Virus record (IMG/VR): IMGVR_UViG_3300021255_003103
Span: 44,954 to 108,953 of that record
Strand: one strand, 5' to 3'
DNA length: 64,000 nt
Origin: a virus
Lineage: Duplodnaviria; Heunggongvirae; Uroviricota; Caudoviricetes
This document shows positions 25,429 through 50,934 of this stretch, piece by piece. Every line of letters starts with the position of its first letter. Position 1 is the first letter of the stretch. The notes below the pieces were generated by a model. It worked only from the letters and a program-made list of their open reading frames with translations. It was not told where the DNA came from and did not search any database. A program made the position numbers and the translations under genes.

Positions 25429-26550
25429 ATGAATCATTTAATAGATAAGTACTTAAAAAAACCCGAATATGTAAAAGAACTTTTTAATAAAGAAGTATCA
25501 ATATCATTAAAGGTTGATGGTGCTGCATTTCAAATATCTTATGATAAAGATCAAGACAAGATAACATATCATAAACGTGGTGGTAGTTCAAAAAGTCTTG
25601 GTCCAATTATTGATGAATACACTCAATTAATGAGAAAGAATGTAAATGATGCAATTGAATATTTTGATAATAAAAAAGATATATTAAAGCAATATAAATT
25701 CTATGCTATTGAAATGTTTAATGATTCATATATTTTATTAACTGTAATTGATAATGATAATAATATTATAGATAATGTTTCAAAACTTAAAGAAATTTCA
25801 AAATCATTGAATATTGATTGTGTTCCTATTTTATTTGATGGTAAATTAAATAAAGAACAAATAGATTCTTTATTAGAAATGATGTCATTAGATCCTGAAA
25901 CAAATAATGATACATATAAAGAATATTTAACAAATATTTTTGGTAAAGGTGAATATCAGAAATTTTTAAATGGAGATGAGGTAGAAGGAATTGTACTTAC
26001 ATGGAATACTGATAAGATTGAACAATATAAGATAATAAATCCAGCATTTAAGACTAGACATGATAAAGAAATTAAACAAGGTAATGAAGAGTTCCAGAAA
26101 GAAATGGAAGAACTTCGTGAACTATTTGAGTTCTTTTATGAAAGTCTTAATAAGTATGGAAAATATTATGGTGATAATTGGATTAAGACATTAAATGATA
26201 ATTTTATAATGATGAATGAACAATCTGATTTTCAACGCAAATTAAAAGAATTTAATAATTCTATTAAGCCAAAATTCAAAGATTTCTTTACATTACAATC
26301 AAATAAAATCGATAAAAGAATACAAAAGTTAATTGATGAATATGGAGATAACATGAAATTTTATTATGAAAAATATTTATCATTATTTAATAAACAAAAG
26401 AAACGTAATTTTACAATTTCAAAAGAATTTCAAATGAAAGTCAATGATTTGATTGAAAAATTACAATCAAAAAATGAATCATTAAAATTATATACAAAAT
26501 ATCATATAAAAGCATTAAATAATTATATATTAGAATCAAAATATAAATAA
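25429..26550 (+). CDS. ATP-dependent polynucleotide ligase (Rnl2/DNA-ligase-type nucleotidyltransferase; KxDG motif I); C-terminus ends with tag-like ...KALNNYILESKYK
   Basis: EVSISLKVDGAAFQI aligns with the T4 Rnl2 motif I region (EWVAREKIHGTNFSL). Size is 373 aa. Confidence 0.55.
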   Translation: MNHLIDKYLKKPEYVKELFNKEVSISLKVDGAAFQISYDKDQDKITYHKRGGSSKSLGPIIDEYTQLMRKNVNDAIEYFDNKKDILKQYKFYAIEMFNDSYILLTVIDNDNNIIDNVSKLKEISKSLNIDCVPILFDGKLNKEQIDSLLEMMSLDPETNNDTYKEYLTNIFGKGEYQKFLNGDEVEGIVLTWNTDKIEQYKIINPAFKTRHDKEIKQGNEEFQKEMEELRELFEFFYESLNKYGKYYGDNWIKTLNDNFIMMNEQSDFQRKLKEFNNSIKPKFKDFFTLQSNKIDKRIQKLIDEYGDNMKFYYEKYLSLFNKQKKRNFTISKEFQMKVNDLIEKLQSKNESLKLYTKYHIKALNNYILESKYK

Positions 26551-26555
26551 TTATA

Positions 26556-27062
26556 ATGAAAAATATTATTAAATTTATCTTAGAAAAATTATTACCATTT
26601 AATGTTTGGATAATGGTTGGATTACCAGGTTCAGGTAAGTCAACATATATTAAAGAAGAACTTCCAAAGAATATTGAAATTATAAACCAAGATTCAATTA
26701 GAGTTGAACTTGGTATAATGAAAGATGATGAGCATAAAGCAATTGGAAATTCCGAACAAGAAAAAGAAGTTGCAAGAATTTGTTTAGAACGAATTGATAA
26801 AGCAATTAAAGATAAAAGAGATTTTGTTATTGATAATACAAATATTAAAGCAGGAAGAGTACAAAATTATTATGATAAGTTAAAGAAAGCTAATGCTAAT
26901 GTTCAAATAATCATTATTGATACTCCTAAAGAAATTTGCAAAGATCGTCGTAAAGAACATATACCAGAAAAGGTTATTGATGATATGCAATTAGGTCTTG
27001 ATAAAGTAAAGGATAAATTTAAGAATAATAAAGATACAATAATAGTTACAAATAGATATTAA
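26556..27062 (+). CDS. Polynucleotide 5'-kinase (T4 Pnkp kinase-domain-like) with CTS-like tag (MKNIIKFILEK)
   Basis: Walker A GLPGSGKST; IINQDSIR (cf. T4 INRDDYRQ); FVIDNTNIKAGRV (cf. VIISDTNLNPERR). Confidence 0.7.
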   Translation: MKNIIKFILEKLLPFNVWIMVGLPGSGKSTYIKEELPKNIEIINQDSIRVELGIMKDDEHKAIGNSEQEKEVARICLERIDKAIKDKRDFVIDNTNIKAGRVQNYYDKLKKANANVQIIIIDTPKEICKDRRKEHIPEKVIDDMQLGLDKVKDKFKNNKDTIIVTNRY

Positions 27063-30030: not shown

Positions 30031-30591
30031 ATGACTTGGTATACTATTTTATTTATAACGGTAATTGCTTTATTTATTGTTAAGTTAGGAATATCATTAT
30101 TTGTCGGTGATTTTGATATGGATGTTGATTTTGACGGTGATAGTGATTTTGATTCATCTAGTGCATTTTCATTTAAAGGTGTATTACATTTTTTGGTAGG
30201 ATTTAGTTCTTATTTATTTGCTCGTTCTCATTCTGAGACTATAAATATTGTTGATGGAAAAGCACAATTTAGTTTTGGAGATTTTACTTGGGCAATTGTT
30301 GTAGGATTAATAGTAATGTTTGGTTTGTTTTATGCATATAAATTAGCGCTAAAAGCAAATAATACAACAAAGAATCCTGAAGATTTTATTTTCAATAAGA
30401 ATTTAATTAATAATTTGAATGGTACAATCTATATTAATTTAGGAAATGGTTCATATTCAGTTCAAGTTAATACACCTGCTGGTACTACAAATGTAACTGC
30501 ATATTATTCAAGTGATGAGTTGGAACCAGGAACTAACGTTGAATTAGAGAAAGATGGAAATAATTTATATATAAAAGATATAGATAGATGA
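30031..30591 (+). CDS. NfeD-like membrane protein (N-terminal TM helices + C-terminal beta-barrel/OB-like domain), partner of the downstream flotillin
   Basis: Two N-terminal TM helices are followed by a central hydrophobic segment. A Gly/Val/Thr/Asn-rich C-terminal strand region (GTIYINLGNGSYSVQVN...GTNVELEKDGNNLYIKDI) is typical of short NfeD proteins encoded next to SPFH genes. Confidence 0.5.
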   Translation: MTWYTILFITVIALFIVKLGISLFVGDFDMDVDFDGDSDFDSSSAFSFKGVLHFLVGFSSYLFARSHSETINIVDGKAQFSFGDFTWAIVVGLIVMFGLFYAYKLALKANNTTKNPEDFIFNKNLINNLNGTIYINLGNGSYSVQVNTPAGTTNVTAYYSSDELEPGTNVELEKDGNNLYIKDIDR

Positions 30592-30761
30592 CTATAAAAG
30601 ATTTATTTTGGAGTAACCCAATAAGATATTCTGTTTTAGGAACGGGTGCTATTTTGACATTATTAATTGGTTCAAAAATTTTATATGATTATTCTTTATA
30701 TACAAATTTGAAAGATGTAAAAAAACAATTAGATAATATAAAATATGACACTGAGTGAATT
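30588..30761 (+). CDS. Small membrane protein (~57 aa, one TM), start overlapping the NfeD stop
   Basis: Hand translation gives MTIKDLFWSNPIRYSVLGTGAILTLLIGSKILYDY...; below the ORF-track cutoff. Confidence 0.3.
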
Positions 30762-30939
30762 AATTAAATTTTTATGGAATGGTGTTGATATTCCATTAAC
30801 TAAGGATGAAATACAGCATTCAGTAAATGTTGCAATATGGGCAGCTAAGAGAGATATAGTTGAAGATAAAGAGGTAAAACAATGTAATGATTTGTATAAT
30901 AAATCAAAATTAACATTAAATAACAACATTATTAATTAA
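30745..30939 (+). CDS. Hypothetical small protein (64 aa)
   Basis: ATG ORF between the NfeD-like and flotillin genes. Confidence 0.35.
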   Translation: MTLSELIKFLWNGVDIPLTKDEIQHSVNVAIWAAKRDIVEDKEVKQCNDLYNKSKLTLNNNIIN

Positions 30940-30956
30940 TTAAATTTTTAAACTAA

Positions 30957-33047
30957 ATGAACGAAACAATTTTAACTTTGTGTTTGATTGGTGGTGGTGT
31001 ACTTTTATTTGTACTAACACTTTGGGGAATTCTTTCTCGTTATCGTCGTTCTGCGCCTGATGAACTTTTGGTTGTATTTGGTAAGTCAGGTAAGATTCAG
31101 GTAACTGGAGAAGATGGTAAGCAACAGACTTTAGTTGTGCCTTCTAAGATTATTCAAGGTGGTGGTTCATTTGTATGGCCTATCATTCAAGACTTCAAAA
31201 AGATGTCAATGAAGCCTATTCAGATTAAGGCTACAGTTGATGGTATTGATTCACAAGCAATTCAATTGCACTTGCCAGTTGTATTGACAACCGCAATTTC
31301 TCGTGACAAGGAAATTCAACAGAATGCTGCAACTCGTTTCTTGAGTGCAACACCAGGTGAAATTCAATCACAAATTCAAGAGATTTTGATTGGTGAAACT
31401 CGTGCTATTATGGCAACAATGCTTATTGAGGAAATTAACGCTGACCGTGATAAGTTCTTGACAAAGGTTCGTAATAATCTTGAACAGGAGTTGACAAAGA
31501 TTGGTTATGATGTTACTAATATTAACATTTCAGAAATTACTGATGATGCCAACTATATTAAGAACATGGGTCAAAAGGCTACAACTCGTAAGCAAGCTGA
31601 AGCTGAGGCAGATATTGCTGAACAGAAGAAGCAAGGAAATGTAAAGATTGCTAATACAAAGAAGGAAGAAGAAATTGCTGTTGCTGCTGCTGAAAAGGAA
31701 AAACAAGTTACGGTTAGTCAAACTCGTCAAGAGCAAGAGGTTAATGTTGCTGCTATTGAAAGAGATAAGCAAATTCAATTGGCAGAAGCTGAAAAGGAGA
31801 GAGAATCTGGTATTGCTGAACAGGAAGCTGCTAAGGTAGCAAATATTGCTGAAGCTCAAGCAACAGCTGAATCTGCAAAGGCTACTGCTAAAGCAAAACA
31901 GATTGCAAATGTATCTGCAGCAGAGGCAGATGCTGAATCTAAGAAAGCTGAAGCTGATGCACGTAAGGTAGCTGCAGTTGCTGCTCGTAAAGCAGAGGCT
32001 GAATCTAATAAAGCTAAGTCTGAAGCTGAGCAAACAAAGGCAATTGCTACTGCACAAGCAGATGCTGAAGCAACTGAAAATGAACAGGAAGCTAAAAAGC
32101 AGACACGTATTGCTCAAGCAAATCAGTTAAAGGAAGCAGAAGTTATCAAGGCTACTCAAGAAAAGGAAGCTAAGGCTGCTGAGTATGAATCTAATAAGAG
32201 ACAACGTAAAGCTGAGCAAGATAAGAAGGCAGGTGTTGCTGAGCAAATGGCAAAGATTGAAGTTGCCCAAGCTCGCGCAAAAGCCGGACAAGCTGAAGCT
32301 GATTCTATTAAGGTTGCTGAAAGTGCTAAGGTTGAAGCAGAAATGGCAGTTGAAAAGACTCGTCAGGATCGTCAAATGGAAGTTAATAAGGCTGCTGCAA
32401 AAGCTGCAGAGGAAAAGTTAAATGCTACTGAAATTATTCCTGCGCAAAAGGCTAAGGAGAAGGCAGTTATTGAAGCCGAAGCAATCAAGCGTAAGGCTGA
32501 GCTTGAAGCTGAAGCAATTAAGGCTAAGATGCTTCGTGAGGCAGAAGCAGAAGCAGAAGCAACTCGTATTAAGTTGAATGCAGAAGCTGAAGGTACAAAG
32601 AATAAGTTGATGGCTGAAGCTGAAGGTAAGCGTGCATCTCTTATGGCTGAAGCTGAAGCTAAACAACAAATGGAACTTGCTCCTGCTATGGCTCTTGAAC
32701 GAATGGTTGCAGCTGTAGGTGGTAATCCTGATCTTGTTGTTCAGTACAAGATGGTTGATCAATATAAGGGTATTGCTGAGGCTCAGGCGAAAGTGCTCGA
32801 GCATATTAACATGGGAGAAGTAACGATCTATGGTGATACAAATACTGGAGCAGATTTTGCTAAGAGTTTCATTAAAAACTTTGCCCCTGCTGTGGATATG
32901 ATTAATGGTGGAGTTAAGGATCAATTCAAGAATCTTTTTGGATTGAGTAATAAAAAGGATGAACTTCCTGCACCTGAAGATCCTAAGCCAGACAATGGTT
33001 CAAAAAGGAATAAGAAAGATACAACATCTTTTGAAGAGGTAAAGTAA
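30957..33047 (+). CDS. Flotillin-like SPFH/band-7 protein (696 aa) with N-terminal TM, SPFH domain and long Ala/Glu-rich coiled-coil (EA-repeat) region
   Basis: N-terminal membrane anchor LTLCLIGGGVLLFVLTLWGIL; SPFH-like block; an extended AEAEAEA/KAEAE repetitive coiled coil as in bacterial flotillins (YqiK/FloT). GC and codon usage are higher than in neighbouring genes. Confidence 0.7.
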   Translation: MNETILTLCLIGGGVLLFVLTLWGILSRYRRSAPDELLVVFGKSGKIQVTGEDGKQQTLVVPSKIIQGGGSFVWPIIQDFKKMSMKPIQIKATVDGIDSQAIQLHLPVVLTTAISRDKEIQQNAATRFLSATPGEIQSQIQEILIGETRAIMATMLIEEINADRDKFLTKVRNNLEQELTKIGYDVTNINISEITDDANYIKNMGQKATTRKQAEAEADIAEQKKQGNVKIANTKKEEEIAVAAAEKEKQVTVSQTRQEQEVNVAAIERDKQIQLAEAEKERESGIAEQEAAKVANIAEAQATAESAKATAKAKQIANVSAAEADAESKKAEADARKVAAVAARKAEAESNKAKSEAEQTKAIATAQADAEATENEQEAKKQTRIAQANQLKEAEVIKATQEKEAKAAEYESNKRQRKAEQDKKAGVAEQMAKIEVAQARAKAGQAEADSIKVAESAKVEAEMAVEKTRQDRQMEVNKAAAKAAEEKLNATEIIPAQKAKEKAVIEAEAIKRKAELEAEAIKAKMLREAEAEAEATRIKLNAEAEGTKNKLMAEAEGKRASLMAEAEAKQQMELAPAMALERMVAAVGGNPDLVVQYKMVDQYKGIAEAQAKVLEHINMGEVTIYGDTNTGADFAKSFIKNFAPAVDMINGGVKDQFKNLFGLSNKKDELPAPEDPKPDNGSKRNKKDTTSFEEVK

Positions 33048-33068: not shown

Positions 33069-33106
33069 AGGTTACTGATTAGTTTCAGTAACCTTTTTTT
33101 ACGCTT
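33069..33106 (+). terminator. Intrinsic terminator (agaggttactga..tcagtaacct + TTTTTTT)
   Basis: 10-12-bp inverted repeat plus T7. Confidence 0.8.
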
Positions 33107-33162: not shown

Positions 33163-34146
33163 ATGGAATTAAATGACGAATATATAATTAAATTATGTTT
33201 TCAAAAAAATTGTGGTCGATTAATTAGAAATTTTAGTTTTGATAAATTAGATAATAATGTTAAAGATTACATAATAAATAGATATAACGATTCATTATCA
33301 ATTGAAGAAACACTAAAAAGAATATATTATAAAATTGAATTTCATCCAAAATGTCCTATATGTGGAAAATTAGTATCTTGGGGTAAATGCGGAAATAATA
33401 AATTTTTTCATAATACATGCAGTTTAAAATGCGCTGGAAAATTAAGTTTGCAAACAATTAAAAAAAAATATGGTTATAGTAATCCAATGGATTTTCCAAA
33501 CGCAAAACAAAATTTAGAAAATACATGTTTAAAAAAATATGGAGTTAAACATGTATTACAAAATAAAGATATAAAGAAAAAACAAGAGCAAACATGTATT
33601 AAAAGATTTGGTACAAATAATATTTTTTCATCCGAAATTGGAAAACAAAAAATAAAAGAATCATTAATAAAACATTTTGGTGTAGATCATCAAATGAAAT
33701 CTCAAGAAATAAAAAATAAATTTAATTGGAAACAATCAGTAGAAAAACAAATTGAAACAAAAAGAAAAAATAATTCTTTTCATATTTCAAAACCAGAGGA
33801 AGAATCTTATATATTATTAAATAATAAATTTAATGATGTAAAAAGACAATACAAATCAAAAAGTTATCCTTATTGTTGTGATTTTTATATTCCAAGTTTA
33901 GACCTATATATTGAATGTAATTATCATTGGACACATGGCGGTCATCCATATAATGAAAACGACATTAATGATATAAATAAAGTAAAAGAATTAAAATCTA
34001 AAAATAAAAAATTTTATAATAATGTTATAATAACATGGACAGTAAGAGATGTTAATAAAAGAAACATAGCCAAAGAAAATAATTTAAATTATTTAGAATT
34101 TTGGAGCATTAATGAATTAAAAAAATGGATAAATATATATAAATAA
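33163..34146 (+). CDS. Zn-ribbon + repeat + Vsr/DUF559-like (PD-(D/E)XK) endonuclease-domain protein; paralog of the N-terminal part of 48997..50763(-)
   Basis: CPICGK...C..C zinc ribbon; tandem (K)KYG(V/Y)-containing ~27-aa repeats; C-terminal CDFYIPSLDLYIECNYHWTHGGHPYNEN ... NVIITWTVRDV fits the DUF559 pattern (DF...l.iE.dG..H ... w.v.R). About 330 aa are strongly similar to the other copy. Confidence 0.5.
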   Translation: MELNDEYIIKLCFQKNCGRLIRNFSFDKLDNNVKDYIINRYNDSLSIEETLKRIYYKIEFHPKCPICGKLVSWGKCGNNKFFHNTCSLKCAGKLSLQTIKKKYGYSNPMDFPNAKQNLENTCLKKYGVKHVLQNKDIKKKQEQTCIKRFGTNNIFSSEIGKQKIKESLIKHFGVDHQMKSQEIKNKFNWKQSVEKQIETKRKNNSFHISKPEEESYILLNNKFNDVKRQYKSKSYPYCCDFYIPSLDLYIECNYHWTHGGHPYNENDINDINKVKELKSKNKKFYNNVIITWTVRDVNKRNIAKENNLNYLEFWSINELKKWINIYK

Positions 34147-37397: not shown

Positions 37398-40300
37398 ATG
37401 GCTCTTTTTGATGAAAGAATTAATGAATATGTTAGCTGGAAAGATGGTAAGCATTATTTTTCAGGAAAAAATGTAACTGATAATATGCAGCCTTCGGGAA
37501 GGGTTATTCGTGAATTATTACAAGAAAGATTAAGAAATCCAATTTTTATACCAACAAAAGAATCTGTTGGTACATCTACATTTATTGATGATGGATATTG
37601 GAGAATATTCTCAAGTAAAGATGCATATGATTTATGGCTTACTGATAGAGTTGCATATGCAGAATTAGAATTAGCAAAATTCCCAAAGCAATCAGAATAT
37701 GAATTCCAATTAACTGGATTTGAAAATAATGCAAGATATGTTATTGAGGGTAGTGGGAATCAAGCAAATGCTGAATTAAACTATACTTGGGATATATTTA
37801 AAGGGCAAAATCCAGTAAATGATAGTATTATAGTTACATATACAATTACAAATACAAATACTAGAAAGACACAATCTTTTACAAACATGTTTACAAATGC
37901 ACAAAAGAATGTGTCAATTAATCTTTATGAATATTTAGGAGAAGGTCAAAATGTTGTAAATATTAATTTGCAAGGTATTAATACATCTGTTTCTGCTGGG
38001 CAAACAATATTTATTACAATGTTACAATTTAAAATTGAAGCAGAATGGAATTATTCTGCATATCATAAACAAGGTGATCCTTTAATGATTCTAAATTATC
38101 GTGTTTTAAGAAACGATACAAATGCTGAAGTAACAGTTTTTGGAACTATTGATAATAATGATACTGTTATTACTGATACATTTGGAAAGGGTTTTTCTGA
38201 TATTCAAAAAACAAATATAGCAATACCAAATAATAACAGATGGGTATCATCAAGTGATGGAAACCCAGTTAAGCACAATTTACAAATGTGGGCTCAGACA
38301 TCATATAATGGTACATTATTTACATCAAATATACTTTATTATGAATTTGAGTTTGCATCAGAAGAATCATTAATTAATCACTTTATTAATTTATCGACAT
38401 CAATTTCATCTGAAGATAAATCATCAATACCTGTTATTAATCCAACATTAATAGCAACTCAATATATTTCAACTAAAATATCTTATGGATATTACACTGA
38501 TAGTGCTTCCCTTGATGCTTCAATTTCAGTGAATTGGAAATTAATTAAAGAAAATTCTACAGATGAACAAATAATTGGAACTTACGATATTTCAAAAAAT
38601 ACAACAAGTGTTTTAGAATTTATACCAATTATAGCAACAGAAGCTAAAAAATCAGTATATTTAGTTGCCACTTATGGAAGTGGAGTAGATGAAGAAGAAC
38701 TTTTGAAAATATTAATATCAATTACACCTAATACTGGTTTTATGGAGCAAAGCGGTTATGTATTAAAGTTAAATGCATACGGTAAGCAAAATAATGATAA
38801 TGTAGAACAGACATGGGAATATGGGTCAAGTTCAAATAAAATAATTACAAGATTTGAAGGTATAGATTGGACTGATAATAAAGGATGGTATAATAATTCA
38901 TTTAGAACATTTGGAACAGATTCCTATGCAGAAATTCAATATGCACCATTAGTAGATATATCACAAGGTAAAACTATTGAAATTGATTTTGAATCAGAAA
39001 AGGTTAGTAATCTTAATGATGTATTAATATTAATTGGTAATAAAAATGGTGCTAGAATTGAAATTACACCAAATAGTGCTACACTATATAATGCAGCTAA
39101 TGTAAATGTCATTGAAACAAACTTTAAAGCAAATGAACGTCTTCATTTATGTTTTATCTTTAATAAAACAGAAACTAATTCAGATAAGAGTGATTTGATT
39201 TTTATAACAAACAATGGTATTCTTGAACGTGCTGTTTCTGGATTAGGTTCAACATTTACATCAAATGGTAATATTAAAATTGGTGGAAGTAGATCTGGTG
39301 TAAGGGTGTATAGTATAAGAGTATATGATTTTGCATTATCTTATACAAATGCATATAATAACTATTTATTTGATTCAGAAGATAAAATTGCAATTAAAAC
39401 AAAAAATGCAGTAATTAATGAATCAACAAATATTATAGACTATGATTTATGTCGTAACAAGATTGATACAATTTTAATTAAAGGTGATTTAAGTAATTTA
39501 TTAAAAGCAACAACAGATAAAGACCAATCTACAACAGATGTTGAAATATTACGTGTATGTCCTTATGATTCAAACTATAACTTTACATGCACTGGTGGTA
39601 TGATTAGAAAACACGGTCAGTCAACATTGAACTATCCTGTTCCTTCAATGAAAATTTGGTTTAATAAGTCAAAATCTGGAGCAACTCCAGTATTTCAATG
39701 TTCTGGCCAAGAAAGCGAAGGATATGCAAAGAATAGATATAGAATGAAAGCAAATTCTATACCTTCAAATAAATTTGTATTACAAGCAAACTACTCAGAT
39801 TCATCTGGTGTTCATAATGGATCATTACAAAGATTAATTAATGAGACATGGTATAATGCAAAGATTAATGGTGAATACAAATTAAGAACAATACCTCAGT
39901 TATTTACATCTAATCAAAAAATTACTAGAAATAATTCTAATCTTTATGATCAATTAGATACAAATAGCAATCTTACTTTAGGAACAAATACTGACGGAAA
40001 ACAATGGAAAGATTATACAAATAATCAATTCCCATATATTTATAGTGATTCTAATAACAAAATGCATAATGGATTACAAATTGGCCCAGATTCGTTCCCT
40101 TGCGTAGTTTTCTATGAAGATACATCATCAAGTGGTAACACAACATTCTTAGGATTATATGTATTCATGGAAGATAAAAAGGCAGATTTCATATATGGAG
40201 AAAGATCTATTTATTATTACGATAATGGTTCTGGACATACATTAGCTGATGATCCATTTGTCTTAAAAACAGAAAACACCAAAAAAGGTAAATATGCAAT

Positions 40301-43300
40301 ACAATTGCCAACTGGCGATACTCAAGCTTTAGATAATGATGATAATAAAGTTTGGGATAACGAACATGTTTTAAGAATTGAAGGTTTGACAATTAATACA
40401 CCATTTTCTTCATTTATGTCAAATACTGATAGTGCAGGTGTTTCATTTGATGCTGTATATAATATTGTAGATAAATCAGGCAATGTTACAGATACTATTT
40501 ATAGATGGGAACAAGACTTTGAATTAATTTATCCAGATCCTGACGATATAGTAGGTAAGATTGATAATGTTACAATGAAAGATACGACTAAGTTTGGTTA
40601 TGATTCTAAATTTAAACGTACATGTCAGCCTTGGGTGGATTTCTTTAATTGGGTTACATCAACATATCAAAATCAAGAAAAATTCGAACAAGAAGCTTCA
40701 CAGCATTTTGATATTTATAAGATGGCTGCATATTATATTATGTTCTTAAGATTTGGTCTTGTTGACTCTGTTGAACGTAATGCGCAATGGAAAACATATG
40801 ATGGTAAACACTGGCATTGTGAATCTTGGGATATGGATATTGCTCTTGGTAATATGAACACTGGTGGTATTGCATTTGATCCACCTATTGATCGTAATTC
40901 TACATTTAAAACAGATACCACTACATATGCATATTCTGGTAAGACAACATCAACGTCTAATTGGATATGGGATGCATTTGAAAACTGGACTTATTGGAGT
41001 AAAGAAGTAGTACCAGCAGTAGCACAAGCTTTATATGAAGCTGGATTAACATATAATAACATTTCTAAAATGTTTGATGAAGAATACCAAGATAAATGGT
41101 GTGAAATTCTTTATAATGAATCAATGTCTTTTAAATATATTAAATCAAGAGGTAATAGTGATCAATGGTTAGCATGGTTACAAGGAGCTCGTACATCACA
41201 CAGACACTGGTGGTTAAGTACATCAATGAATTTCTGGGATTCAAAATGGACATGTGGTGATTATAAAAACCACAAAGTAACAATATTTGCAAACCATAAT
41301 AAGAGTACTTCAGGTAAAGAATATATTATTTGTAAGACAAATGGTTCAACGTATTTGTCAATGGTAAGAGAATCTACTACAATTGATTCTCAATACGCAA
41401 CGTTATCATCTCCAGCAAATTTTGATATTACTGATGTTGAAATGTCTAACAAGGTACAATTCCATATATATGGTGCAACATATATTGAAGAATTCGATGG
41501 TAGTGCATTTGCCAATGGTATAAGTACAATTACATTTGCTGGTGCATATGATGATGTATTAGGCGCTCCTTTAAAGAAAGTTAATTTAGGATGCCCTTAT
41601 GAAACATTAGCAACTGGTGAAATGATAGGTACATTTAATGGTATTTTAACAGGTATTACATTCTCAGATAGTTTTGGTAATGATGCTGCAAAGGGCTTAC
41701 AAGAATTAAATGTAACTGGTCAAATTAATTATGGAAGTAATTTATTAGTTCCTGAAATTGAAAAATTAAATAAAACAGAATTAAAGAATTTCTATGGAAA
41801 GGGTTCTGGTATAACATCATTCCATTCATCTCTTTCAGGTAATGCATTTGTCAATATTGAATTACCTGGTCATTTACGTATGTCTGATGGATCAAAAGAC
41901 ATAGGATTTACTGAATTAGTAATGACAAACTCTACATGGGAAAATCTTACATGGTATGATTCAGTTGTTGATTCTCATTATGAAACAATGACATATCTAG
42001 ATGAAAATGGAGTTGAAAAAGAAAAACAAGTACCAGTTGGAACAATTTCTTATGAACGTACATGTGTAGAAAAAGGTGATAGACATAATATACCATTTAC
42101 ATTAACAATTGTTAGATTTATTGGTTCTACAGGTAAGACTGAAAAATCAATGCGATTTGTATTAGATTGGATTAAATCAATTGAAGCATATTTGAGAAAT
42201 GCTATGAACAATGGAGCAATTGCACCAGGTGTAGGTGATTATGCTGAATGTGAAACTTTTGACGATATGTTAAAACATGAACTTAACCGTAGAACATTAG
42301 AAATTGATAATATTAAATGGGATCATACAACTATTAAAGATAATGAATTAATTACATATAAGCAATTACAATATATATCAATGTTTAATGATGGAAGAAA
42401 TAATGCAGATAATAATACACCATTATTAAAAGGATATATTGAAGTAAGTATGGATGATGGTGAACTATCTGTAGAACAATTGACTCAATTAAAAGAATGG
42501 TTTGGTAATCAGATATTTAGTATTAAATCAATTGGTGTTGGTTTAGTTATTGACCAGTCATTAAATTATATTAAAATTAATGTTGGTAATGCAAATGTTG
42601 AAACAAACCCAGATACTGGTGAACTTGAAATTTCAATTGAAGAAGGAAGCAGAGCAACATTATCTGCTACTAGATTCCAATTACAAGAAAACGATACTAC
42701 AACATATTGGGGAATTAAAGCACCTGGTTCAGCTGCTAATGCAGGTACTAGTTGGCAAGGATGTACGATAACAACTGGTAAAGATAAGTTAACATATTTG
42801 GATGTAGCAGAAACAGTATATGGAGATCGTACAATTGAAGTTACATGTTCTATGGTTGGTGAAGAATTATCGTCATCAGTATTAATACATATTAAAGCAG
42901 TTTCATATCCTGCAAGTATAAAATTAGCAGTGGATCAATCACGTAATGGAAGTAATGAAATGAATAGATTACGTGATTTTGCTGGTGCATATGTATATTG
43001 GAAAGGTGGATTAGTGGCAGAATTCTATCCTGAAATCAAATGGATAGAAGAATCATTTTCTGGTGATACTGTTGATGAATCTACTATAAGAAAAGCTAAA
43101 ATTGATGATATTATATATACATTGACAAATTCAAATGGTCAGAACATAATTAATCAAGTTTCATACAATACATTCCAAAAGGGTCAAAATTCAACAGGAA
43201 ACGTTAATGATAATTATATTACATATTATAATAATGCTACTCCAGAGCTTAAAGGTATTGTTTTAGGAGTACAAAATTTACCAGATCAAGGATCTGCAGA

Positions 43301-44045
43301 TTATAAATTAACAATAACTATAAGATATGCATCAAATAAAACTGTTATATTAACGACAAATATTATTATAATTGATGATGCTGTTGAAATAGTACAATAT
43401 AATAGTGGTTTATTGTTTGATGCATTAAAAGATCAATATTTAGCATGTAATAATGCAACAATAACACGTTCATTCTATAAATCAGATTTATTATCATTAA
43501 ATGGAACATTATCATTTACAGATTCAAAATATCAACTTTTGACTGATTTAACAACTATAGATCGTAAAAGTATTTTTGAATATTTACCAAATATTGAAGG
43601 TATTGATTTATCTGGATGCACTTCTCTAGACACATCTCCTGATGCGCCACCAACAGATTCTAGTGACGCACGTAGAAATTTTGTTATGAATAAATGCACT
43701 AAGCTTACAACATTTAATGTTACTGGATGTACATCACTCGGTAATGTATATAATACATTATCAAGATTTTATCAGATTGATTTAAGTAAATGCACAGCAA
43801 TTAAAACTGTAAAAGCGTATGGTACAAAAGTAGATATATTACTACCATCTAGTTCAAGCATACAGACATTAGAATTAGGTACGCCAAGACATATTGCATT
43901 AATAAATCAAAATGAATTATTTACTAATAAAGTTTCAGTACAAAATCCAGATAGTTTGGAAAGTGTTGTATTAAATACTGATTCTCAATCAAAAAATGAT
44001 TTATTTAGTACATTTGCACAAATTATATTAAATACAGAACTATGA
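37398..44045 (+). CDS. Giant (2215 aa) structural protein (tail fibre/baseplate candidate)
   Basis: 6.6 kb uninterrupted ATG ORF; Thr/Ser/Asn/Gly-rich; stop overlaps the next start (ATGA). Confidence 0.55.
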   Translation: MALFDERINEYVSWKDGKHYFSGKNVTDNMQPSGRVIRELLQERLRNPIFIPTKESVGTSTFIDDGYWRIFSSKDAYDLWLTDRVAYAELELAKFPKQSEYEFQLTGFENNARYVIEGSGNQANAELNYTWDIFKGQNPVNDSIIVTYTITNTNTRKTQSFTNMFTNAQKNVSINLYEYLGEGQNVVNINLQGINTSVSAGQTIFITMLQFKIEAEWNYSAYHKQGDPLMILNYRVLRNDTNAEVTVFGTIDNNDTVITDTFGKGFSDIQKTNIAIPNNNRWVSSSDGNPVKHNLQMWAQTSYNGTLFTSNILYYEFEFASEESLINHFINLSTSISSEDKSSIPVINPTLIATQYISTKISYGYYTDSASLDASISVNWKLIKENSTDEQIIGTYDISKNTTSVLEFIPIIATEAKKSVYLVATYGSGVDEEELLKILISITPNTGFMEQSGYVLKLNAYGKQNNDNVEQTWEYGSSSNKIITRFEGIDWTDNKGWYNNSFRTFGTDSYAEIQYAPLVDISQGKTIEIDFESEKVSNLNDVLILIGNKNGARIEITPNSATLYNAANVNVIETNFKANERLHLCFIFNKTETNSDKSDLIFITNNGILERAVSGLGSTFTSNGNIKIGGSRSGVRVYSIRVYDFALSYTNAYNNYLFDSEDKIAIKTKNAVINESTNIIDYDLCRNKIDTILIKGDLSNLLKATTDKDQSTTDVEILRVCPYDSNYNFTCTGGMIRKHGQSTLNYPVPSMKIWFNKSKSGATPVFQCSGQESEGYAKNRYRMKANSIPSNKFVLQANYSDSSGVHNGSLQRLINETWYNAKINGEYKLRTIPQLFTSNQKITRNNSNLYDQLDTNSNLTLGTNTDGKQWKDYTNNQFPYIYSDSNNKMHNGLQIGPDSFPCVVFYEDTSSSGNTTFLGLYVFMEDKKADFIYGERSIYYYDNGSGHTLADDPFVLKTENTKKGKYAIQLPTGDTQALDNDDNKVWDNEHVLRIEGLTINTPFSSFMSNTDSAGVSFDAVYNIVDKSGNVTDTIYRWEQDFELIYPDPDDIVGKIDNVTMKDTTKFGYDSKFKRTCQPWVDFFNWVTSTYQNQEKFEQEASQHFDIYKMAAYYIMFLRFGLVDSVERNAQWKTYDGKHWHCESWDMDIALGNMNTGGIAFDPPIDRNSTFKTDTTTYAYSGKTTSTSNWIWDAFENWTYWSKEVVPAVAQALYEAGLTYNNISKMFDEEYQDKWCEILYNESMSFKYIKSRGNSDQWLAWLQGARTSHRHWWLSTSMNFWDSKWTCGDYKNHKVTIFANHNKSTSGKEYIICKTNGSTYLSMVRESTTIDSQYATLSSPANFDITDVEMSNKVQFHIYGATYIEEFDGSAFANGISTITFAGAYDDVLGAPLKKVNLGCPYETLATGEMIGTFNGILTGITFSDSFGNDAAKGLQELNVTGQINYGSNLLVPEIEKLNKTELKNFYGKGSGITSFHSSLSGNAFVNIELPGHLRMSDGSKDIGFTELVMTNSTWENLTWYDSVVDSHYETMTYLDENGVEKEKQVPVGTISYERTCVEKGDRHNIPFTLTIVRFIGSTGKTEKSMRFVLDWIKSIEAYLRNAMNNGAIAPGVGDYAECETFDDMLKHELNRRTLEIDNIKWDHTTIKDNELITYKQLQYISMFNDGRNNADNNTPLLKGYIEVSMDDGELSVEQLTQLKEWFGNQIFSIKSIGVGLVIDQSLNYIKINVGNANVETNPDTGELEISIEEGSRATLSATRFQLQENDTTTYWGIKAPGSAANAGTSWQGCTITTGKDKLTYLDVAETVYGDRTIEVTCSMVGEELSSSVLIHIKAVSYPASIKLAVDQSRNGSNEMNRLRDFAGAYVYWKGGLVAEFYPEIKWIEESFSGDTVDESTIRKAKIDDIIYTLTNSNGQNIINQVSYNTFQKGQNSTGNVNDNYITYYNNATPELKGIVLGVQNLPDQGSADYKLTITIRYASNKTVILTTNIIIIDDAVEIVQYNSGLLFDALKDQYLACNNATITRSFYKSDLLSLNGTLSFTDSKYQLLTDLTTIDRKSIFEYLPNIEGIDLSGCTSLDTSPDAPPTDSSDARRNFVMNKCTKLTTFNVTGCTSLGNVYNTLSRFYQIDLSKCTAIKTVKAYGTKVDILLPSSSSIQTLELGTPRHIALINQNELFTNKVSVQNPDSLESVVLNTDSQSKNDLFSTFAQIILNTEL

Positions 44046-45277: not shown

Positions 45278-47014
45278 ATGACAAATAAACGTTGCTTGGT
45301 TTATGAGACTTTAGGAAGCGTTTCAAATCTTCAAGTGTCAGAAGCTAAAGGCGATGGTTTAATGCGTTTGCAAGGTGTATTTGGTGTTTGCGGTGTAAAG
45401 AATCAAAATAATCGTGTATATGACAAAGATAATTATGCACAGATGGTTGAATCTTTACAAAAAAAGATTAAAGAATCTGGTTGTCCAGGAGAATTGGAAC
45501 ATCCTAATTCAATGAACATAAATCTTGAAAATGTATCTCACAAAATTGAAGATATTCAGATGAATGAAGATGGTACAATTACAGGTTCAATTGTTCTTTT
45601 AAATACTCCTAAAGGTCAAATTGCAAAAGCTATCGTTGAAGGCGGTCTTCCACTTTTTATTTCGTCACGTGGTGCTGGTACAATTACTAATGAAGGTCGT
45701 GTAACATTATCTACAATACAGACATATGATTTAGTAGGTACTCCAGGATTTAGTCAAGCTAAGCTCACATTATCAAATAATCAAAAACTTGAATGTTTGA
45801 ATGAAGGTCTAGAAGATAATAATGAAACTTGGGTTATTGTTGAAGGTGATGATCTTTTAGGAGATGAAGATAATAAAGATGATAATAAAGATCCTAAAGA
45901 TAATAAAGATTCAAAAACCAATAAAGATAATGATCCAAAAAATGGTGACAAACCTAAAGATGACGATAACAAAAATAATGACGATAAAGACATCAATATG
46001 AAAGAACTTAAAGAAGCTATTGATAAGCTTACTGAGAAAGTAACATCTCTCGAAGCTGAACTTCATGTAGCTCAAGAATCTTTAAACGAAACACAAAATG
46101 AAGTAAAGTCATTTAAGCCAACAAATTATGACGGTATTCAAAAGTGGGTTGTTGAACAATTTGCTCCAGAGTTCCAAAAAAAAATCAATGAAAGCTTAAA
46201 TACTTTAATAAGTGAAAAGTTTAATGATGATTCTTCAGAAGATATGCAAGAATCTATTAAATCTTGGGTTGTTGAAGAATTTGCTCCATTAGTACAAGGT
46301 TGGATTACTGAAGAATTTTCACCAGAAATTCAAAATTGGATTACTGAAGAATACTCACCAGAAATTCAAAAATGGATTGTTGAAGAATACTCACCAGAAA
46401 TTCAAAAATGGATTGTTGAAGAATACTCACCAGAAATTCAAGGTTGGATTACTGAAGAATACTCACCAGAAATTCAAAATTGGATTACTGAAGAATACTC
46501 ACCAGAAATTCAAGGTTGGATTACTGAAGAATTTGCTCCTACCGTTGAAAATTGGTTAATGGAAGAATATACTCCTGAACAATCATTAATTATTGAAAAG
46601 AAAGTAAATGAAAATGTATCTGCATTTATGGAATCACAAAAAGCAGGTCGTCTTGATGAAATTGACGGTTTACTTGAATCTATTGCTGCTGAAGGAAACA
46701 ATGATGTTCAAAAAATTGTTAAAGAGCAACAAGAGGAAAATAAGTATAAAGGAATATATGTAGTAGAAAATATGCCAGCTGAATATCTTCCATCTTGGAA
46801 TATGCTTAATGAAGCTGCACAACAATTAATTATTAGAAGTTCAAAAATGTATGACTTTACTAAAGAAGGCGTACTTGAATCATTCTGGGCTAATGTAGAT
46901 TTTGGTAAGAATGCTGAAGAAACAAAGCCAGTTGTAGAATCAAAGAATCCTATTCAAAATTATCAAAATAATATTATAGCTAACATGAAGAGACTTCGTG
47001 GTTTGAACTACTAA
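45278..47014 (+). CDS. Prohead protease (T4 gp21-like) fused to an acidic repeat-containing scaffold-like C-terminal region
   Basis: The N-terminal ~180 aa (LQGVFGVCGVKNQNNRVYDKDNY...GELEHP...SSRGAGT) aligns with T4 gp21 (GIFMQAEVVNRNKRLYPKRIL...). Downstream is a poly-acidic KD/ND-rich linker, a coiled-coil segment, and 7-8 tandem 14-aa repeats WI(T/V)EE(Y/F)SPEIQ(N/K/G). Confidence 0.6.
   Translation: MTNKRCLVYETLGSVSNLQVSEAKGDGLMRLQGVFGVCGVKNQNNRVYDKDNYAQMVESLQKKIKESGCPGELEHPNSMNINLENVSHKIEDIQMNEDGTITGSIVLLNTPKGQIAKAIVEGGLPLFISSRGAGTITNEGRVTLSTIQTYDLVGTPGFSQAKLTLSNNQKLECLNEGLEDNNETWVIVEGDDLLGDEDNKDDNKDPKDNKDSKTNKDNDPKNGDKPKDDDNKNNDDKDINMKELKEAIDKLTEKVTSLEAELHVAQESLNETQNEVKSFKPTNYDGIQKWVVEQFAPEFQKKINESLNTLISEKFNDDSSEDMQESIKSWVVEEFAPLVQGWITEEFSPEIQNWITEEYSPEIQKWIVEEYSPEIQKWIVEEYSPEIQGWITEEYSPEIQNWITEEYSPEIQGWITEEFAPTVENWLMEEYTPEQSLIIEKKVNENVSAFMESQKAGRLDEIDGLLESIAAEGNNDVQKIVKEQQEENKYKGIYVVENMPAEYLPSWNMLNEAAQQLIIRSSKMYDFTKEGVLESFWANVDFGKNAEETKPVVESKNPIQNYQNNIIANMKRLRGLNY
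46262..46586 (+). repeat. 42-nt (14-codon) in-frame tandem repeats (x7-8) inside the protease/scaffold gene
   Basis: The repeated peptide WITEEYSPEIQNW is visible in the translation; the same stretch yields a repetitive alternative-frame artefact ORF (46377..46559). Confidence 0.8.
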
Positions 47015-47112
47015 ATTTACTTAAATTTTCAATAGGATAAGAAAATTTTTATTTTTATATAAATTAAAATTCTCAATAGAGAAATAACAAATAAATTTTG
47101 ATTATAAATAAT

Positions 47113-48882
47113 ATGTTTAATGAACAAAATGGCGCAGTTACATGGGAAAAAATGTTGAAGGAAAACTTTAACGTTAATGACCAGGAAAAACTTAACTGGG
47201 TTTCTCAATATGCTGCAATTCATGAAATTCATGAATCACAATTAGGTATTAATACTGGTAATGTAGTTCCATCTACAGCTCATCCAGGTGTTAGCCCTAT
47301 TTATGCAACTCCAATGAATACTCTTGGCATTGGTAATCCAACAGCTCCTAGCCAATTAGATCCAATGAGTACAGCACCTTATAATGCTGCTAATCCAACA
47401 GGTTCATTCTGGGGTCAAACTCCAGGTTCAGGTGATATTCCAGTATCAACACTTCCAATGGCTCTTAACATTGCATTGTTAACTATTGGTCTTGAACTTG
47501 TTCCAGTTATTCCTTCTAAAGGTCCTTGGGCTATGTTAACATATATGGACTTCCCATATGCTGGTGGTAAGCTCGGTCGTGTAAACGAAACATCATTTGA
47601 TGGTAAGGGTGAAGGTAATGAAAACAAGCCTATCTACATTAAGATTAAAGGTCTTACACTTACTCAAATTGCTGGTATTCGTGGAGCAATGGAAGCTGGT
47701 GATGTAAAAGCTGATTCTGTTGTTGAAGTTGGTGGTTTCAAAGGTAAGTTTATCATGCTTGGTCGTATGGATGCTTGCCCACTTGTTAAAGTTGTAGAAT
47801 GCTCTGCTGCTAATAAATCAATTCGTGAAGAATTTGGTGCTGCTACAACAGTTAAGATTGGTACTCACACAATTACATTAGAAGCTGCTTCTGAAGGTAA
47901 GGCTGCACAAGCTGTTGAAGCTGATTTCGTTCAAACTTCAGTTGATTTAGTTGATGGTTTTGCTAACTTCTTTGATGGTAGTAAGAATCCTATGACACGT
48001 GCTCAAAACGAAACTGGTACAGGTAATGTAATTGGTCTTCGTTTATTCAGCAAGTGGATCCAAATGGGTTCATACGAAGTAACTGGTACTGTTACACGTC
48101 AACAACTTCAAGATCTTCCTCTTTATGGTGTTGACGCAGTATCTAAAGTTATGGAAGCTCTCCAAAACGAAATTACACAACACATCAACCAACGTATTCT
48201 TGAAAGAGTATTTGCACTTGGTGTTACTAACGCTGTACAGCAAAAGGCTCGTCAAGGTGTAGATCTTAACCTTTATATGGGTAACGGTGGCGCTGATATT
48301 CCATTTGCTACTGCATTCCCAGGTGTTCCACACTTCACAGATATCTATGGACATGATCATAAAGCTGATTGGGGTAACGTAAAGAATGCTGAAGTTAATA
48401 CTTCTGCTGAAAATCTTGCAACACGTCAACGTCGTATTATGTCTAAGTTACTTGCTGCTGCTAACTTAATCCAATTAGTAGGTCGTCGTGGTCGTCCAAC
48501 ATGGGTTGTAACAAACGGACAAGTTGCTACTGCACTTCAAGATGTTTCAGGTTATGTTGTAGCTCCAATGCTTAACACAATGTCTCAAGCTAATACACAA
48601 AACTTATACCATGCAGGTACAGTTGCTGGTCTTCAAATCTATGTTGATCCATATATGGACTGGAATGATACACGTATCTGTATTGGCCGTAAGGGTGATG
48701 GTAATTCACCAGGTGTTATCTTTATGCCTTATATCCTTGCTGATACAGTTTCTATTACTGCAGAAGGTACAATGGCTCCAAAGATGCTTGTTAACTCAAG
48801 ATATACTATTGCAGAAGCTGGCTTCTATCCAGAACTCCAATATCTCACAATCGCAGTTGGTTCAGCATTTGGAATTATCTAA
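47113..48882 (+). CDS. Major capsid protein, T4 gp23-like
   Basis: Blockwise similarity to T4 gp23: ALNIALLTIGLELVPVIPSKGPWAML vs AIPNLIAFDICGVQPMNSPTGQVFAL; PTWVVTNGQVATALQDVSG vs GNFIIASRNVVNVLASVDTG; LQIYVDPYMDWNDTRICIGRKG vs YRVYIDQYAKQDYFTVGYKG. ORF-track start 47098 is TTG; ATG is at 47113. Gene order protease-scaffold then MCP is as in T4. Confidence 0.7.
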   Translation: MFNEQNGAVTWEKMLKENFNVNDQEKLNWVSQYAAIHEIHESQLGINTGNVVPSTAHPGVSPIYATPMNTLGIGNPTAPSQLDPMSTAPYNAANPTGSFWGQTPGSGDIPVSTLPMALNIALLTIGLELVPVIPSKGPWAMLTYMDFPYAGGKLGRVNETSFDGKGEGNENKPIYIKIKGLTLTQIAGIRGAMEAGDVKADSVVEVGGFKGKFIMLGRMDACPLVKVVECSAANKSIREEFGAATTVKIGTHTITLEAASEGKAAQAVEADFVQTSVDLVDGFANFFDGSKNPMTRAQNETGTGNVIGLRLFSKWIQMGSYEVTGTVTRQQLQDLPLYGVDAVSKVMEALQNEITQHINQRILERVFALGVTNAVQQKARQGVDLNLYMGNGGADIPFATAFPGVPHFTDIYGHDHKADWGNVKNAEVNTSAENLATRQRRIMSKLLAAANLIQLVGRRGRPTWVVTNGQVATALQDVSGYVVAPMLNTMSQANTQNLYHAGTVAGLQIYVDPYMDWNDTRICIGRKGDGNSPGVIFMPYILADTVSITAEGTMAPKMLVNSRYTIAEAGFYPELQYLTIAVGSAFGII

Positions 48883-48941
48883 GATATATATTAAGGCACA
48901 ATTCTCGCCTCTATATATTAATCCGATTCGTAAGAATCACA

Positions 48942-48972
48942 TTAGGAGTAGCATATGCTACTCCTTTTTTAT
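48942..48972 (+). terminator. Intrinsic terminator (aggagtagcat-atgctactcct + TTTTTTATT)
   Basis: Perfect 11-bp palindrome plus T6; the stem resembles the 6123/6226 terminators. Confidence 0.85.
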
Positions 48973-48996
48973 TAATTAATATATTTTTATCATAAT

Positions 48997-50763: not shown

Positions 50764-50934
50764 AATAAAACATTTATAGTTAAATATTAAATAGTAAGTT
50801 ATTAAAAATAATTTAATATTTGATTTTCAATTCAGTCTTAATTTTTTTATTTTTATTAAATTGTATCTATTAAGCATCATTTGCTTAAATGTAAATACAA
50901 TAGAATATAATAAATATAAAAAAGATAATATAAT

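Follow-up and report, generated by a model that had tools for sequence, protein, structure and literature searches.

A flotillin and an NfeD-like partner encoded as a two-gene module in a phage of probable Bacteroidales hosts

We have studied a pair of genes encoding an NfeD-like membrane protein and a flotillin in a 64,000-nt stretch of Caudoviricetes phage DNA (IMG/VR record IMGVR_UViG_3300021255_003103, positions 44,954 to 108,953; hereafter the window), which has a GC content of about 25%. The module consists of four tightly packed open reading frames (ORFs) on the plus strand: p186 (30031..30591), the NfeD-like membrane partner of 186 amino acids (aa) with three N-terminal helices and a C-terminal OB-fold; p56 (30588..30758), a 56-aa protein with a moderately hydrophobic segment; p64 (30745..30939), a small soluble protein of 64 aa; and a 696-aa flotillin of the FloT/YqiK type (30957..33047). 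The genes of p186 and p56 overlap by 4 nt, those of p56 and p64 by 14 nt, and 17 nt separate p64 from the flotillin gene. This arrangement bears out the ORF placement in an earlier note that had been made from the DNA letters; the p64 ORF had gone unmentioned there. The flotillin gene is followed by a putative intrinsic terminator (33069..33100, plus strand) with a 10-bp stem (AGGTTACTGA/TCAGTAACCT), a 6-nt loop and a TTTTTT tract; the hairpin was read directly from the plus strand, whereas a hairpin scan had listed it for the minus strand. Given their packing and the predicted terminator that closes them, the four ORFs seem to be transcribed together, either as a complete unit or as the last part of a longer one. 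Sigma-70-type promoter motifs were found 49 times as compared to 39.7 expected in shuffled sequence (standard deviation 6.0), a marginal excess, and Bacteroidota-type TAnnTTTG motifs 49 times as compared to 50.5, i.e. without enrichment; no promoter was assigned from either of them.

The two small ORFs do not belong to the conserved core. p56 is present in three of 16 related viral loci (L007, L011, L014) and p64 in five of them, and both are therefore regarded as lineage-specific inserts between the core genes. Public assemblies list p56 among their called genes, and the protein had no family match in Pfam, NCBIfam or PHROG profile searches; the sole match of p64 was a weak one to a PHROG family (E 0.0039).

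The 696-aa protein carries the SPFH domain that the earlier note had proposed: The Pfam Band_7/SPFH profile (PF01145) matches aa 35-224 (31059..31628, plus strand) with 80.1 bits, well above the curated gathering cutoff of 23.6 (E 2.6e-22), and the match covers profile positions 6-175 of 176. When the protein was searched against the sequences of the Protein Data Bank (PDB), all five matches were human flotillin-1 or flotillin-2 (E 4e-20 to 8e-10), the best being flotillin-2 (E 4e-20) and flotillin-1 (E 3e-18); stomatin, prohibitin and HflK/C proteins were not among them. The single NCBIfam match is the FloT model NF058507, with a score of 124.4 bits that is below the equivalog cutoff of 700; likewise, the flotillin of Bacteroides thetaiotaomicron reaches only 152.8 bits. 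At the level of profile scores this rules out orthology with Bacillus subtilis FloT, but not membership in the flotillin family. Moreover, the protein has full-length homology to chromosomal flotillins of the Bacteroidales, and more than 1,100 relatives were found in metagenomes. By homology, the 696-aa protein is a flotillin of the prokaryotic SPFH2 (FloT/YqiK) type.

The architecture is that of an N-terminal transmembrane anchor, an SPFH domain and a long Ala/Glu-rich coiled coil, as had been anticipated. The one strongly hydrophobic segment of the protein (aa 8-26, mean Kyte-Doolittle hydropathy 2.43) is followed by RYRR, and the membrane anchor was assigned to aa 4-26 (30966..31034, plus strand), where the AlphaFold2 (AF2) model has a helix at aa 2-31. 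The positive-inside rule predicts that the remainder of the protein is located in the cytoplasm. The AF2 monomer model is poor, with a predicted local distance difference test score (pLDDT) of 54.7, and its secondary structure alone was used. Together with the composition, this low-confidence secondary structure delimits an Ala/Glu/Lys-rich helical, putatively coiled-coil region at aa ~198-586 (31548..32714, plus strand): The helices span aa 198-233, 238-488 and 497-586, with a break at a conserved proline near aa 495, and aa 231-600 contain 26% Ala and 17% Glu, including a REAEAEAEATR tract. This region aligns with the coiled coil of Escherichia coli YqiK. Within it, alignment gap analysis identified a jumbo-phage-specific expansion of about 90 residues (aa 304-395; 31866..32141, plus strand) that is absent from the flotillins of the Bacteroidales and of the gut phage csAssE-Sib (OR575929). 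Lesser inserts of the phage flotillin are at aa 50-62 and 558-579, and a comparison of the protein with itself by BLAST revealed no internal repeat that would account for the helical expansion. Finally, a putative C-terminal flotillin-type domain (aa ~587-660; 32715..32936, plus strand) was assigned by homology to the C-terminus of the csAssE-Sib flotillin: The latter matches the Pfam Flot profile PF15975 with an E value of 2e-9, and the C-terminal 196 aa of the window flotillin (from aa 501) are 43% identical to its counterpart (E 2e-23), whereas the direct match of the window flotillin to PF15975 is marginal (E 0.71; 10.4 bits versus a cutoff of 27).

The partner protein p186 is more divergent. 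Its AF2 model, based on a 32-sequence alignment, has a mean pLDDT of 80 and consists of three helices (aa 3-24, 48-66 and 82-110; pLDDT ~88-96) and a five-stranded beta domain (aa 129-181; 30415..30573, plus strand); in the model, the C-terminus thus forms a soluble all-beta OB-fold domain. Three features define the flotillin partners YuaF and YqiJ, namely a set of three hydrophobic stretches, a soluble OB domain of all-beta structure and linkage in an operon, whereas the mutual sequence similarity of such partners is very weak (PMC2636767, Hinderhofer et al. 2009). As far as predicted, p186 shares these three features and thus qualifies as an NfeD2-type partner. Sequence searches against the PDB with p186 alone or with a 33-sequence family profile gave no match to NfeD or YuaF. 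An exhaustive profile search then yielded 271 representatives of the p186 family, from which an 89-sequence alignment was built. The best PDB match of this larger profile is YuaF, the partner of FloT in B. subtilis, with a marginal E value of 0.071 and the entire OB domain in register, and three of the 89 family members match the Pfam NfeD profile PF01957 directly (best E 6e-5). Moreover, the top match of p186 in a viral structure library is full-length, with 29% identity and an E value of 1.2e-11, and bears the UniProt name "NfeD-like C-terminal domain-containing protein". The C-terminal domain also produced sub-threshold matches to Pfam Big_3_5 and to the adhesin repeat 4p99; with an OB-fold in the model, both were rejected as chance or analogous matches of a beta-rich sequence.

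Several observations speak against an NfeD identity of p186. The protein itself has no significant match to Pfam NfeD (PF01957), YqiJ_N or YqiJ_OB (PF07290, PF21001), and the comparison of its family with E. coli YqiJ by hhalign was not significant. In a fold comparison, the OB-fold resembles ribosomal protein uS17 slightly more than NfeD. The topology is a prediction, in which the middle helix is amphipathic and moderately hydrophobic, and two of the three helices pass a strict hydropathy threshold. On account of its fold and architecture, its synteny and the weak sequence signals that link its family to NfeD, we regard p186 as a divergent NfeD-like protein, with membership in PF01957 unproven; the designation "NfeD-like" is justified. 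Of the initial proposal of an NfeD protein upstream of the flotillin, the topology with N-terminal helices and a C-terminal beta domain and the operon position have stood, whereas a direct match to Pfam NfeD was not obtained.

A second characteristic of p186 is an acidic tract of alternating aspartates at aa 27-41 (DFDMDVDFDGDSDFD; 30109..30153, plus strand) that includes the motif DxDxDG and is followed by a conserved SFKGxxHFxxGFS segment. In an alignment of p186 with its closest relatives (alignment A2), D31, D33, D35, D39 and D41 are invariant and G36 is nearly so; across the family, DxDxDG is present in 43 and DxDxDxD in 60 of the 89 members. DxDxDG is the canonical Ca2+-loop motif. The acidic loop is disordered in the AF2 model (pLDDT <50), and it is tempting to speculate that it might bind cations.

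The two core genes are inherited together. A p186 homologue is located immediately upstream of the flotillin gene in all 16 related jumbo-phage loci of IMG/VR, and a p186-family partner was found in 79 of 79 tested phage loci of the csAssE-Sib type. To cover cellular genomes, we scanned one genome per species, resulting in 80 loci, 78 of them with a scorable flotillin ORF: In 74 of these 78 Bacteroidales-type loci, a p186-family ORF of 164-217 aa precedes the flotillin gene at a distance of 15-357 nt (mostly 15-88 nt). The nearest cellular flotillins are almost all from Bacteroidales (Bacteroides, Parabacteroides, Prevotella and Phocaeicola; 33-36% identity by tblastn); the exceptions among the 80 loci are one phage-like contig and one locus binned as Coprobacillus sp. 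CAG:698. As an independent confirmation of this homology, the partner protein of B. thetaiotaomicron is related to alignment A2 with an hhalign probability of 99.5% (E 1.7e-22). The Bacteroidales partner of about 165 aa, exemplified by L046:3483-3980 from B. thetaiotaomicron (one of the upstream ORFs of loci L023-L101), is covered by no model in Pfam or NCBIfam; the B. thetaiotaomicron protein goes by the name of "hypothetical protein" or "transmembrane protein". The Bacteroidales flotillin partners are an uncurated family that is probably related to NfeD.

Neighbour-joining trees of the flotillins and of their partners are congruent, and the pairwise distances in the two families correlate with r = 0.90. 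In these trees, the jumbo-phage flotillins are monophyletic and sister to those of the Bacteroidales, with which they share 38-42% identity as compared to 60-91% within the phage clade. By contrast, the csAssE-Sib pair branches beside the Bacteroidales, with 65-69% flotillin identity, which indicates a second, more recent capture. Unrelated lineages of Bacteroidales phages have thus acquired the whole module in at least two independent events. Phylogeny had been proposed earlier as the way to examine a host origin of the flotillin, and it supports one in the form of an old capture. Judged from these relationships, the module represents the operon type of the Bacteroidales, and its capture dates far back rather than being a recent transfer. 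The likeness to the bacterial nfeD-floT operon that had been noticed at the outset extends to gene order and orientation, and it is specifically the Bacteroidales operon that is matched. In comparisons with relatives, the ratio of nonsynonymous to synonymous substitution rates (dN/dS) was 0.07-0.15 for the flotillin and 0.15-0.39 for the partner, values that are approximate since dS is high; they argue that both genes are functional and under purifying selection. Taken together, it is very probable that p186 and the flotillin form a host-derived two-gene membrane-scaffold module.

How rare such modules are depends on where one looks. Among deposited phage genomes, 10 of 50,697 records match, and two complete phages are annotated with a flotillin, in agreement with the initial impression that flotillin/NfeD pairs are uncommon in phages; the module is, however, abundant in two metagenomic phage lineages, which limits this statement. 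In IMG/VR, 166 stretches match the csAssE-Sib-type module, in gut phages of about 150 kb (L102-L181) whose flotillin and partner are 96-100% identical to those of csAssE-Sib.

What might a phage gain from such a module? We tentatively propose, by analogy with cellular systems, a role in the maintenance or organisation of the host membrane during infection; this role is clearly less certain than the identity of the module, and for identity and role combined we consider the reading the best explanation overall and rather probable. Human flotillin forms a membrane-attached cage (PMC11260169), and a clamp- or dome-like oligomer has been proposed for Staphylococcus aureus FloA. In S. aureus, the cytosolic domain of NfeD binds the flotillin and stabilises its oligomer, and the nfeD-floA pair, which is required under stress, stabilises membrane proteins that are unfolded or insoluble in a manner that does not depend on ATP (PMC11222466). 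Extrapolating from this bacterial and human work, the phage flotillin would be anchored with its N-terminus in the inner membrane of the host, with the remainder in the cytoplasm, and would oligomerise via its very long helical region to a membrane-attached dome or clamp, whereas the OB domain of the partner, if cytosolic, would bind and stabilise the oligomer. Host gene expression presumably declines during infection, and the phage copy, with its capsid-like codon bias (see below), may keep the host membrane organised throughout the long and costly infection by a jumbo phage. The phage could profit from stable membrane proteins and from the fluidity and integrity of the membrane, and the scaffold might also serve its own membrane proteins as a platform.

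Further points have to be weighed against this proposal. The AF2 model of the flotillin, with its pLDDT of 54.7, gives no cage or clamp geometry. Codon bias is a proxy for expression only. FloA belongs to another SPFH subfamily (YqfA/SPFH5) than FloT and YqiK. Finally, the literature searched gave no expression, localisation or phenotype data for any phage flotillin: The search returned no study of a phage-encoded flotillin, and the finds concerned the host floA gene as an integration site, flotillin-associated rhodopsins and unrelated topics.

A bolder idea, which we consider a long shot, is that the jumbo-phage flotillin with its wall-helix extension of about 90 residues and the DxDxDG partner build an enlarged, phage-specific membrane-attached cage. 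Such a cage could be a dedicated inner-membrane compartment, e.g. a platform that responds to cations and serves virion assembly, genome replication or the exclusion of competitors. If true, phages would build a membrane organelle of a new kind in Bacteroidota.

Among the alternative explanations, control of proteolysis survives best, even though it is unlikely. In analogy to HflK/C, the flotillin cage might enclose or recruit the host FtsH or another protease and thus shield phage proteins or redirect proteolysis. Several SPFH subfamilies, such as HflK/C and YbbK/YbbJ, do associate with FtsH (summarised in PMC2636767), and the module would, as judged from its domains, form a membrane-anchored SPFH oligomer. 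However, it contains a single SPFH gene of the SPFH2 flotillin type rather than a tandem pair of paralogues, and its best matches are flotillins, without any match to HflK/C in NCBIfam or the PDB. Moreover, the positive-inside rule predicts the bulk of the flotillin in the cytoplasm, whereas HflK/C are periplasmic; neither the Pfam search nor the AF2 model shows in p186 the ClpP-type protease domain that NfeD1b proteins have; and no protease gene lies beside the pair, neither in the phage nor in B. thetaiotaomicron, where the neighbours are fimbrillin-like, HTH (helix-turn-helix), DUF5715, AAA-ATPase-like and PhoH genes.

Slightly less likely still is a function in exclusion or in the timing of lysis, in which a remodelled inner membrane would block the DNA entry of competing phages or regulate holin triggering and thus delay lysis. 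The products of the module are predicted at the membrane, and in this phage its genes directly precede the late structural genes. Moreover, its independent capture by two lineages of Bacteroidales phages that are not related to each other suggests that it is of great use specifically during infection. Against this, Pfam and PHROG searches identified no holin, endolysin or known exclusion gene next to the module, and in csAssE-Sib and its lineage the module is found among replication genes, next to an acyl carrier protein gene and away from the lysis genes. Searches of PADLOC-DB v2 gave no matches for the flotillin, p186, p56, p64 or the flanking proteins, and there is no precedent in the literature searched. 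The suggestion in the earlier note that the module might be a hijacked component of a defence island is likewise unsupported, both by the PADLOC result and by the B. thetaiotaomicron neighbourhood described above, which contains no obvious defence gene.

That the flotillin is a recent passenger, i.e. a newly acquired and unadapted host gene with little or no function for the phage, is very improbable and has been largely refuted. This explanation was attractive because of the composition of the gene: Its GC content is 0.40 as compared to ~0.20-0.30 nearby and ~0.25 in the window, and the GC content at the third codon position (GC3) is 0.24 versus 0.07-0.19 in other genes. However, the GC excess is mainly found at codon position 1 (0.59), and this is due to the Ala and Glu content of the protein (17% and 12%, respectively). 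In addition, 78% of the lysine codons of the flotillin gene are AAG, a preference that is common to the genes for the major capsid protein (60%) and the tail sheath (45%), whereas most other genes have 10-30%. This reads as a capsid-like, expression-linked bias, and a high expression of the flotillin gene seems likely from it. Moreover, the co-inherited partner has an ordinary phage composition (GC 0.27, GC3 0.12), as do p56 and p64 (GC 0.23-0.27 for the three genes). Thus, an atypical GC content and codon usage, which had been ascribed to the whole module, applies to the flotillin gene but not to the three ORFs upstream. Finally, the large distance to the nearest cellular homologues as compared to the cohesion of the phage clade and a dN/dS far below 1 are at odds with a fresh and idle acquisition. 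We conclude that the raised GC content of the flotillin gene mostly reflects the amino acid composition, in addition to codon bias of the expression type, rather than recent transfer. The weakest alternative, a coiled-coil virion or scaffold protein with an SPFH-resembling N-terminus, could draw on the adjoining structural module and on a low-complexity helix that makes up more than half of the protein, but it is refuted at the level of homology by the Band_7 match over 170 of 176 profile positions, the conserved flotillin-specific C-terminal region, the NfeD-like partner that is always upstream and the full-length homology to chromosomal Bacteroidales flotillins.

The phage itself, from gut or rumen, is huge and AT-rich and most likely infects Bacteroidales. 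In addition to a helicase and a head-closure protein, the window encodes a prohead protease (45278-47014), the major head protein (47098-48882) and the tail sheath (50935-54078). A protein identical to p186 is found on contigs of 128 and 245 kb, and related proteins are present on contigs of up to 460 kb. The capsid protein has distant relatives (31-37% identity) in the Prevotella Lak megaphages, in Tenacibaculum phage pT24 and Sphingomonas phage PAU, and in an uncultured phage of 462 kb. Shine-Dalgarno-like 4-mers precede three of the 37 ORFs of at least 150 aa in the whole window, which does not exceed the background of 9.9% at random positions. An absence of Shine-Dalgarno usage is typical of Bacteroidota and their phages. 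The cellular homologues, this background frequency and the capsid relatives, which include Bacteroidota jumbo phages and Lak phages, all point to Bacteroidales as the most likely hosts. A 5.9-kb contig (L022; CACYVR010000057.1) that encodes an 83%-identical flotillin has been binned in the rumen "Methanobrevibacter" metagenome-assembled genome RUG12316. An archaeal host was rejected, as this is probably a composition-driven mis-binning of an AT-rich phage contig and the other homologies lead to Bacteroidota; the contig suggests the rumen as a habitat of the phage clade.

Some of the neighbouring genes deserve mention. Between the flotillin terminator and the next conserved gene, that for p209, lies a gene for a 327-aa homing endonuclease (33163-34146, plus strand; Pfam DUF7487, E 1e-14; phrog_3339, E 6.5e-15). 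In the related loci L005-L007, p209 directly follows the flotillin, and an insert of 1.1-1.7 kb occupies the same site in L008, L009 and L014; the site looks like an insertion hotspot for mobile elements. Upstream of the module (25429-27062, plus strand), an RNA-ligase-like gene with a weak Pfam match adjoins a Zeta-toxin/AAA_33 kinase-like gene; the two, labelled from precomputed Pfam marks on the identical contig, may be an RNA-repair pair. An insertion-sequence-type transposase gene (61378-62601, minus strand; phrog_506, E 1e-46) adjoins a helicase gene. Two giant ORFs on the plus strand encode 1748 aa (873-6119; GC content 21%, no PHROG match) and 2215 aa (37398-44045; matching phrog_14959, a family whose function is not known). 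Finally, the strand switches between the capsid and sheath genes (48900-51000), where the minus strand carries a gene for a protein of 588 aa (48997-50763), the GC content falls to 0.18-0.20 and the GC skew is reversed.

Phage flotillins as such are known, being annotated in GenBank for csAssE-Sib and Vibrio phage KIT04, and textbooks describe the nfeD-flotillin operon. What is new is the capture of the whole module, and not of the flotillin alone, at least twice by Bacteroidales phages, its retention under selection and in remodelled form by a large clade of jumbo phages, and the assignment of the partner to an uncurated NfeD-like family with a conserved acidic DxDxDG tract. Of the conserved membrane proteins of bacteria, flotillins belong to those that are least understood. 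Their repeated capture argues that membrane organisation or membrane-protein stability limits phage production in anaerobes of the gut and rumen. The module thus offers a natural experiment: a minimal, self-sufficient and divergent flotillin system for expression and structural studies, of which one phage lineage has remodelled the flotillin with a longer helical wall.

The closest known counterpart of the module is the chromosomal operon of the Bacteroidales (B. thetaiotaomicron, Prevotella, Parabacteroides, Phocaeicola), which shares both genes, their order and their orientation, with a partner of ~165-177 aa and a flotillin of ~545-566 aa. The Bacteroidales partner likewise has the alternating-Asp tract (DxDxD, often DxDxDG), an SFKGxxHFxxGFG motif and a C-terminal beta domain, and it is 24-33% identical to p186. 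In contrast to the cellular operon, the phage module has an AT-rich, phage-like composition, its two core genes are split by two small ORFs rather than by the gap of 15-88 nt that is seen in most Bacteroidales loci, and its flotillin is ~130-150 aa longer, mainly due to the helical expansion. The same module is present in csAssE-Sib, annotated as "transmembrane protein" and "flotillin family protein"; the partner is homologous to p186 (E 5e-12) and the flotillin is 39-41% identical to that of the window, but it has the normal length of 566 aa, and its capture was independent and much more recent. More distant is the flotillin family protein of Vibrio phage KIT04 (Demerecviridae), which has 473 aa and 29-31% identity over the SPFH region, comes from a phage of a proteobacterial host and branches outside the group of Bacteroidales and jumbo phages. 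The gene upstream of it (L002:3689-3937) encodes a hydrophobic, probably multi-helix membrane protein of 82 aa without an OB domain that may be a truncated or alternative partner. The NfeD2-SPFH2 operons yuaF-floT (yuaG) of B. subtilis and yqiJ-yqiK of E. coli follow the same logic of a small OB-fold membrane protein and then a flotillin, in which the N-terminal anchor and the SPFH domain are likewise followed by a coiled coil rich in Ala and Glu (PMC2636767); the window flotillin is 23% identical to YqiK, and the DxDxDG tract of p186 is not present as such in YqiJ. In S. aureus, the order is again the same, nfeD first and flotillin second; FloA is far shorter than the window flotillin, with 328 aa for the FloA cited in PMC13245101, and the likeness here is by description rather than by sequence comparison. 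By analogy, the nfeD-floA pair would be the best available functional model for the phage module.

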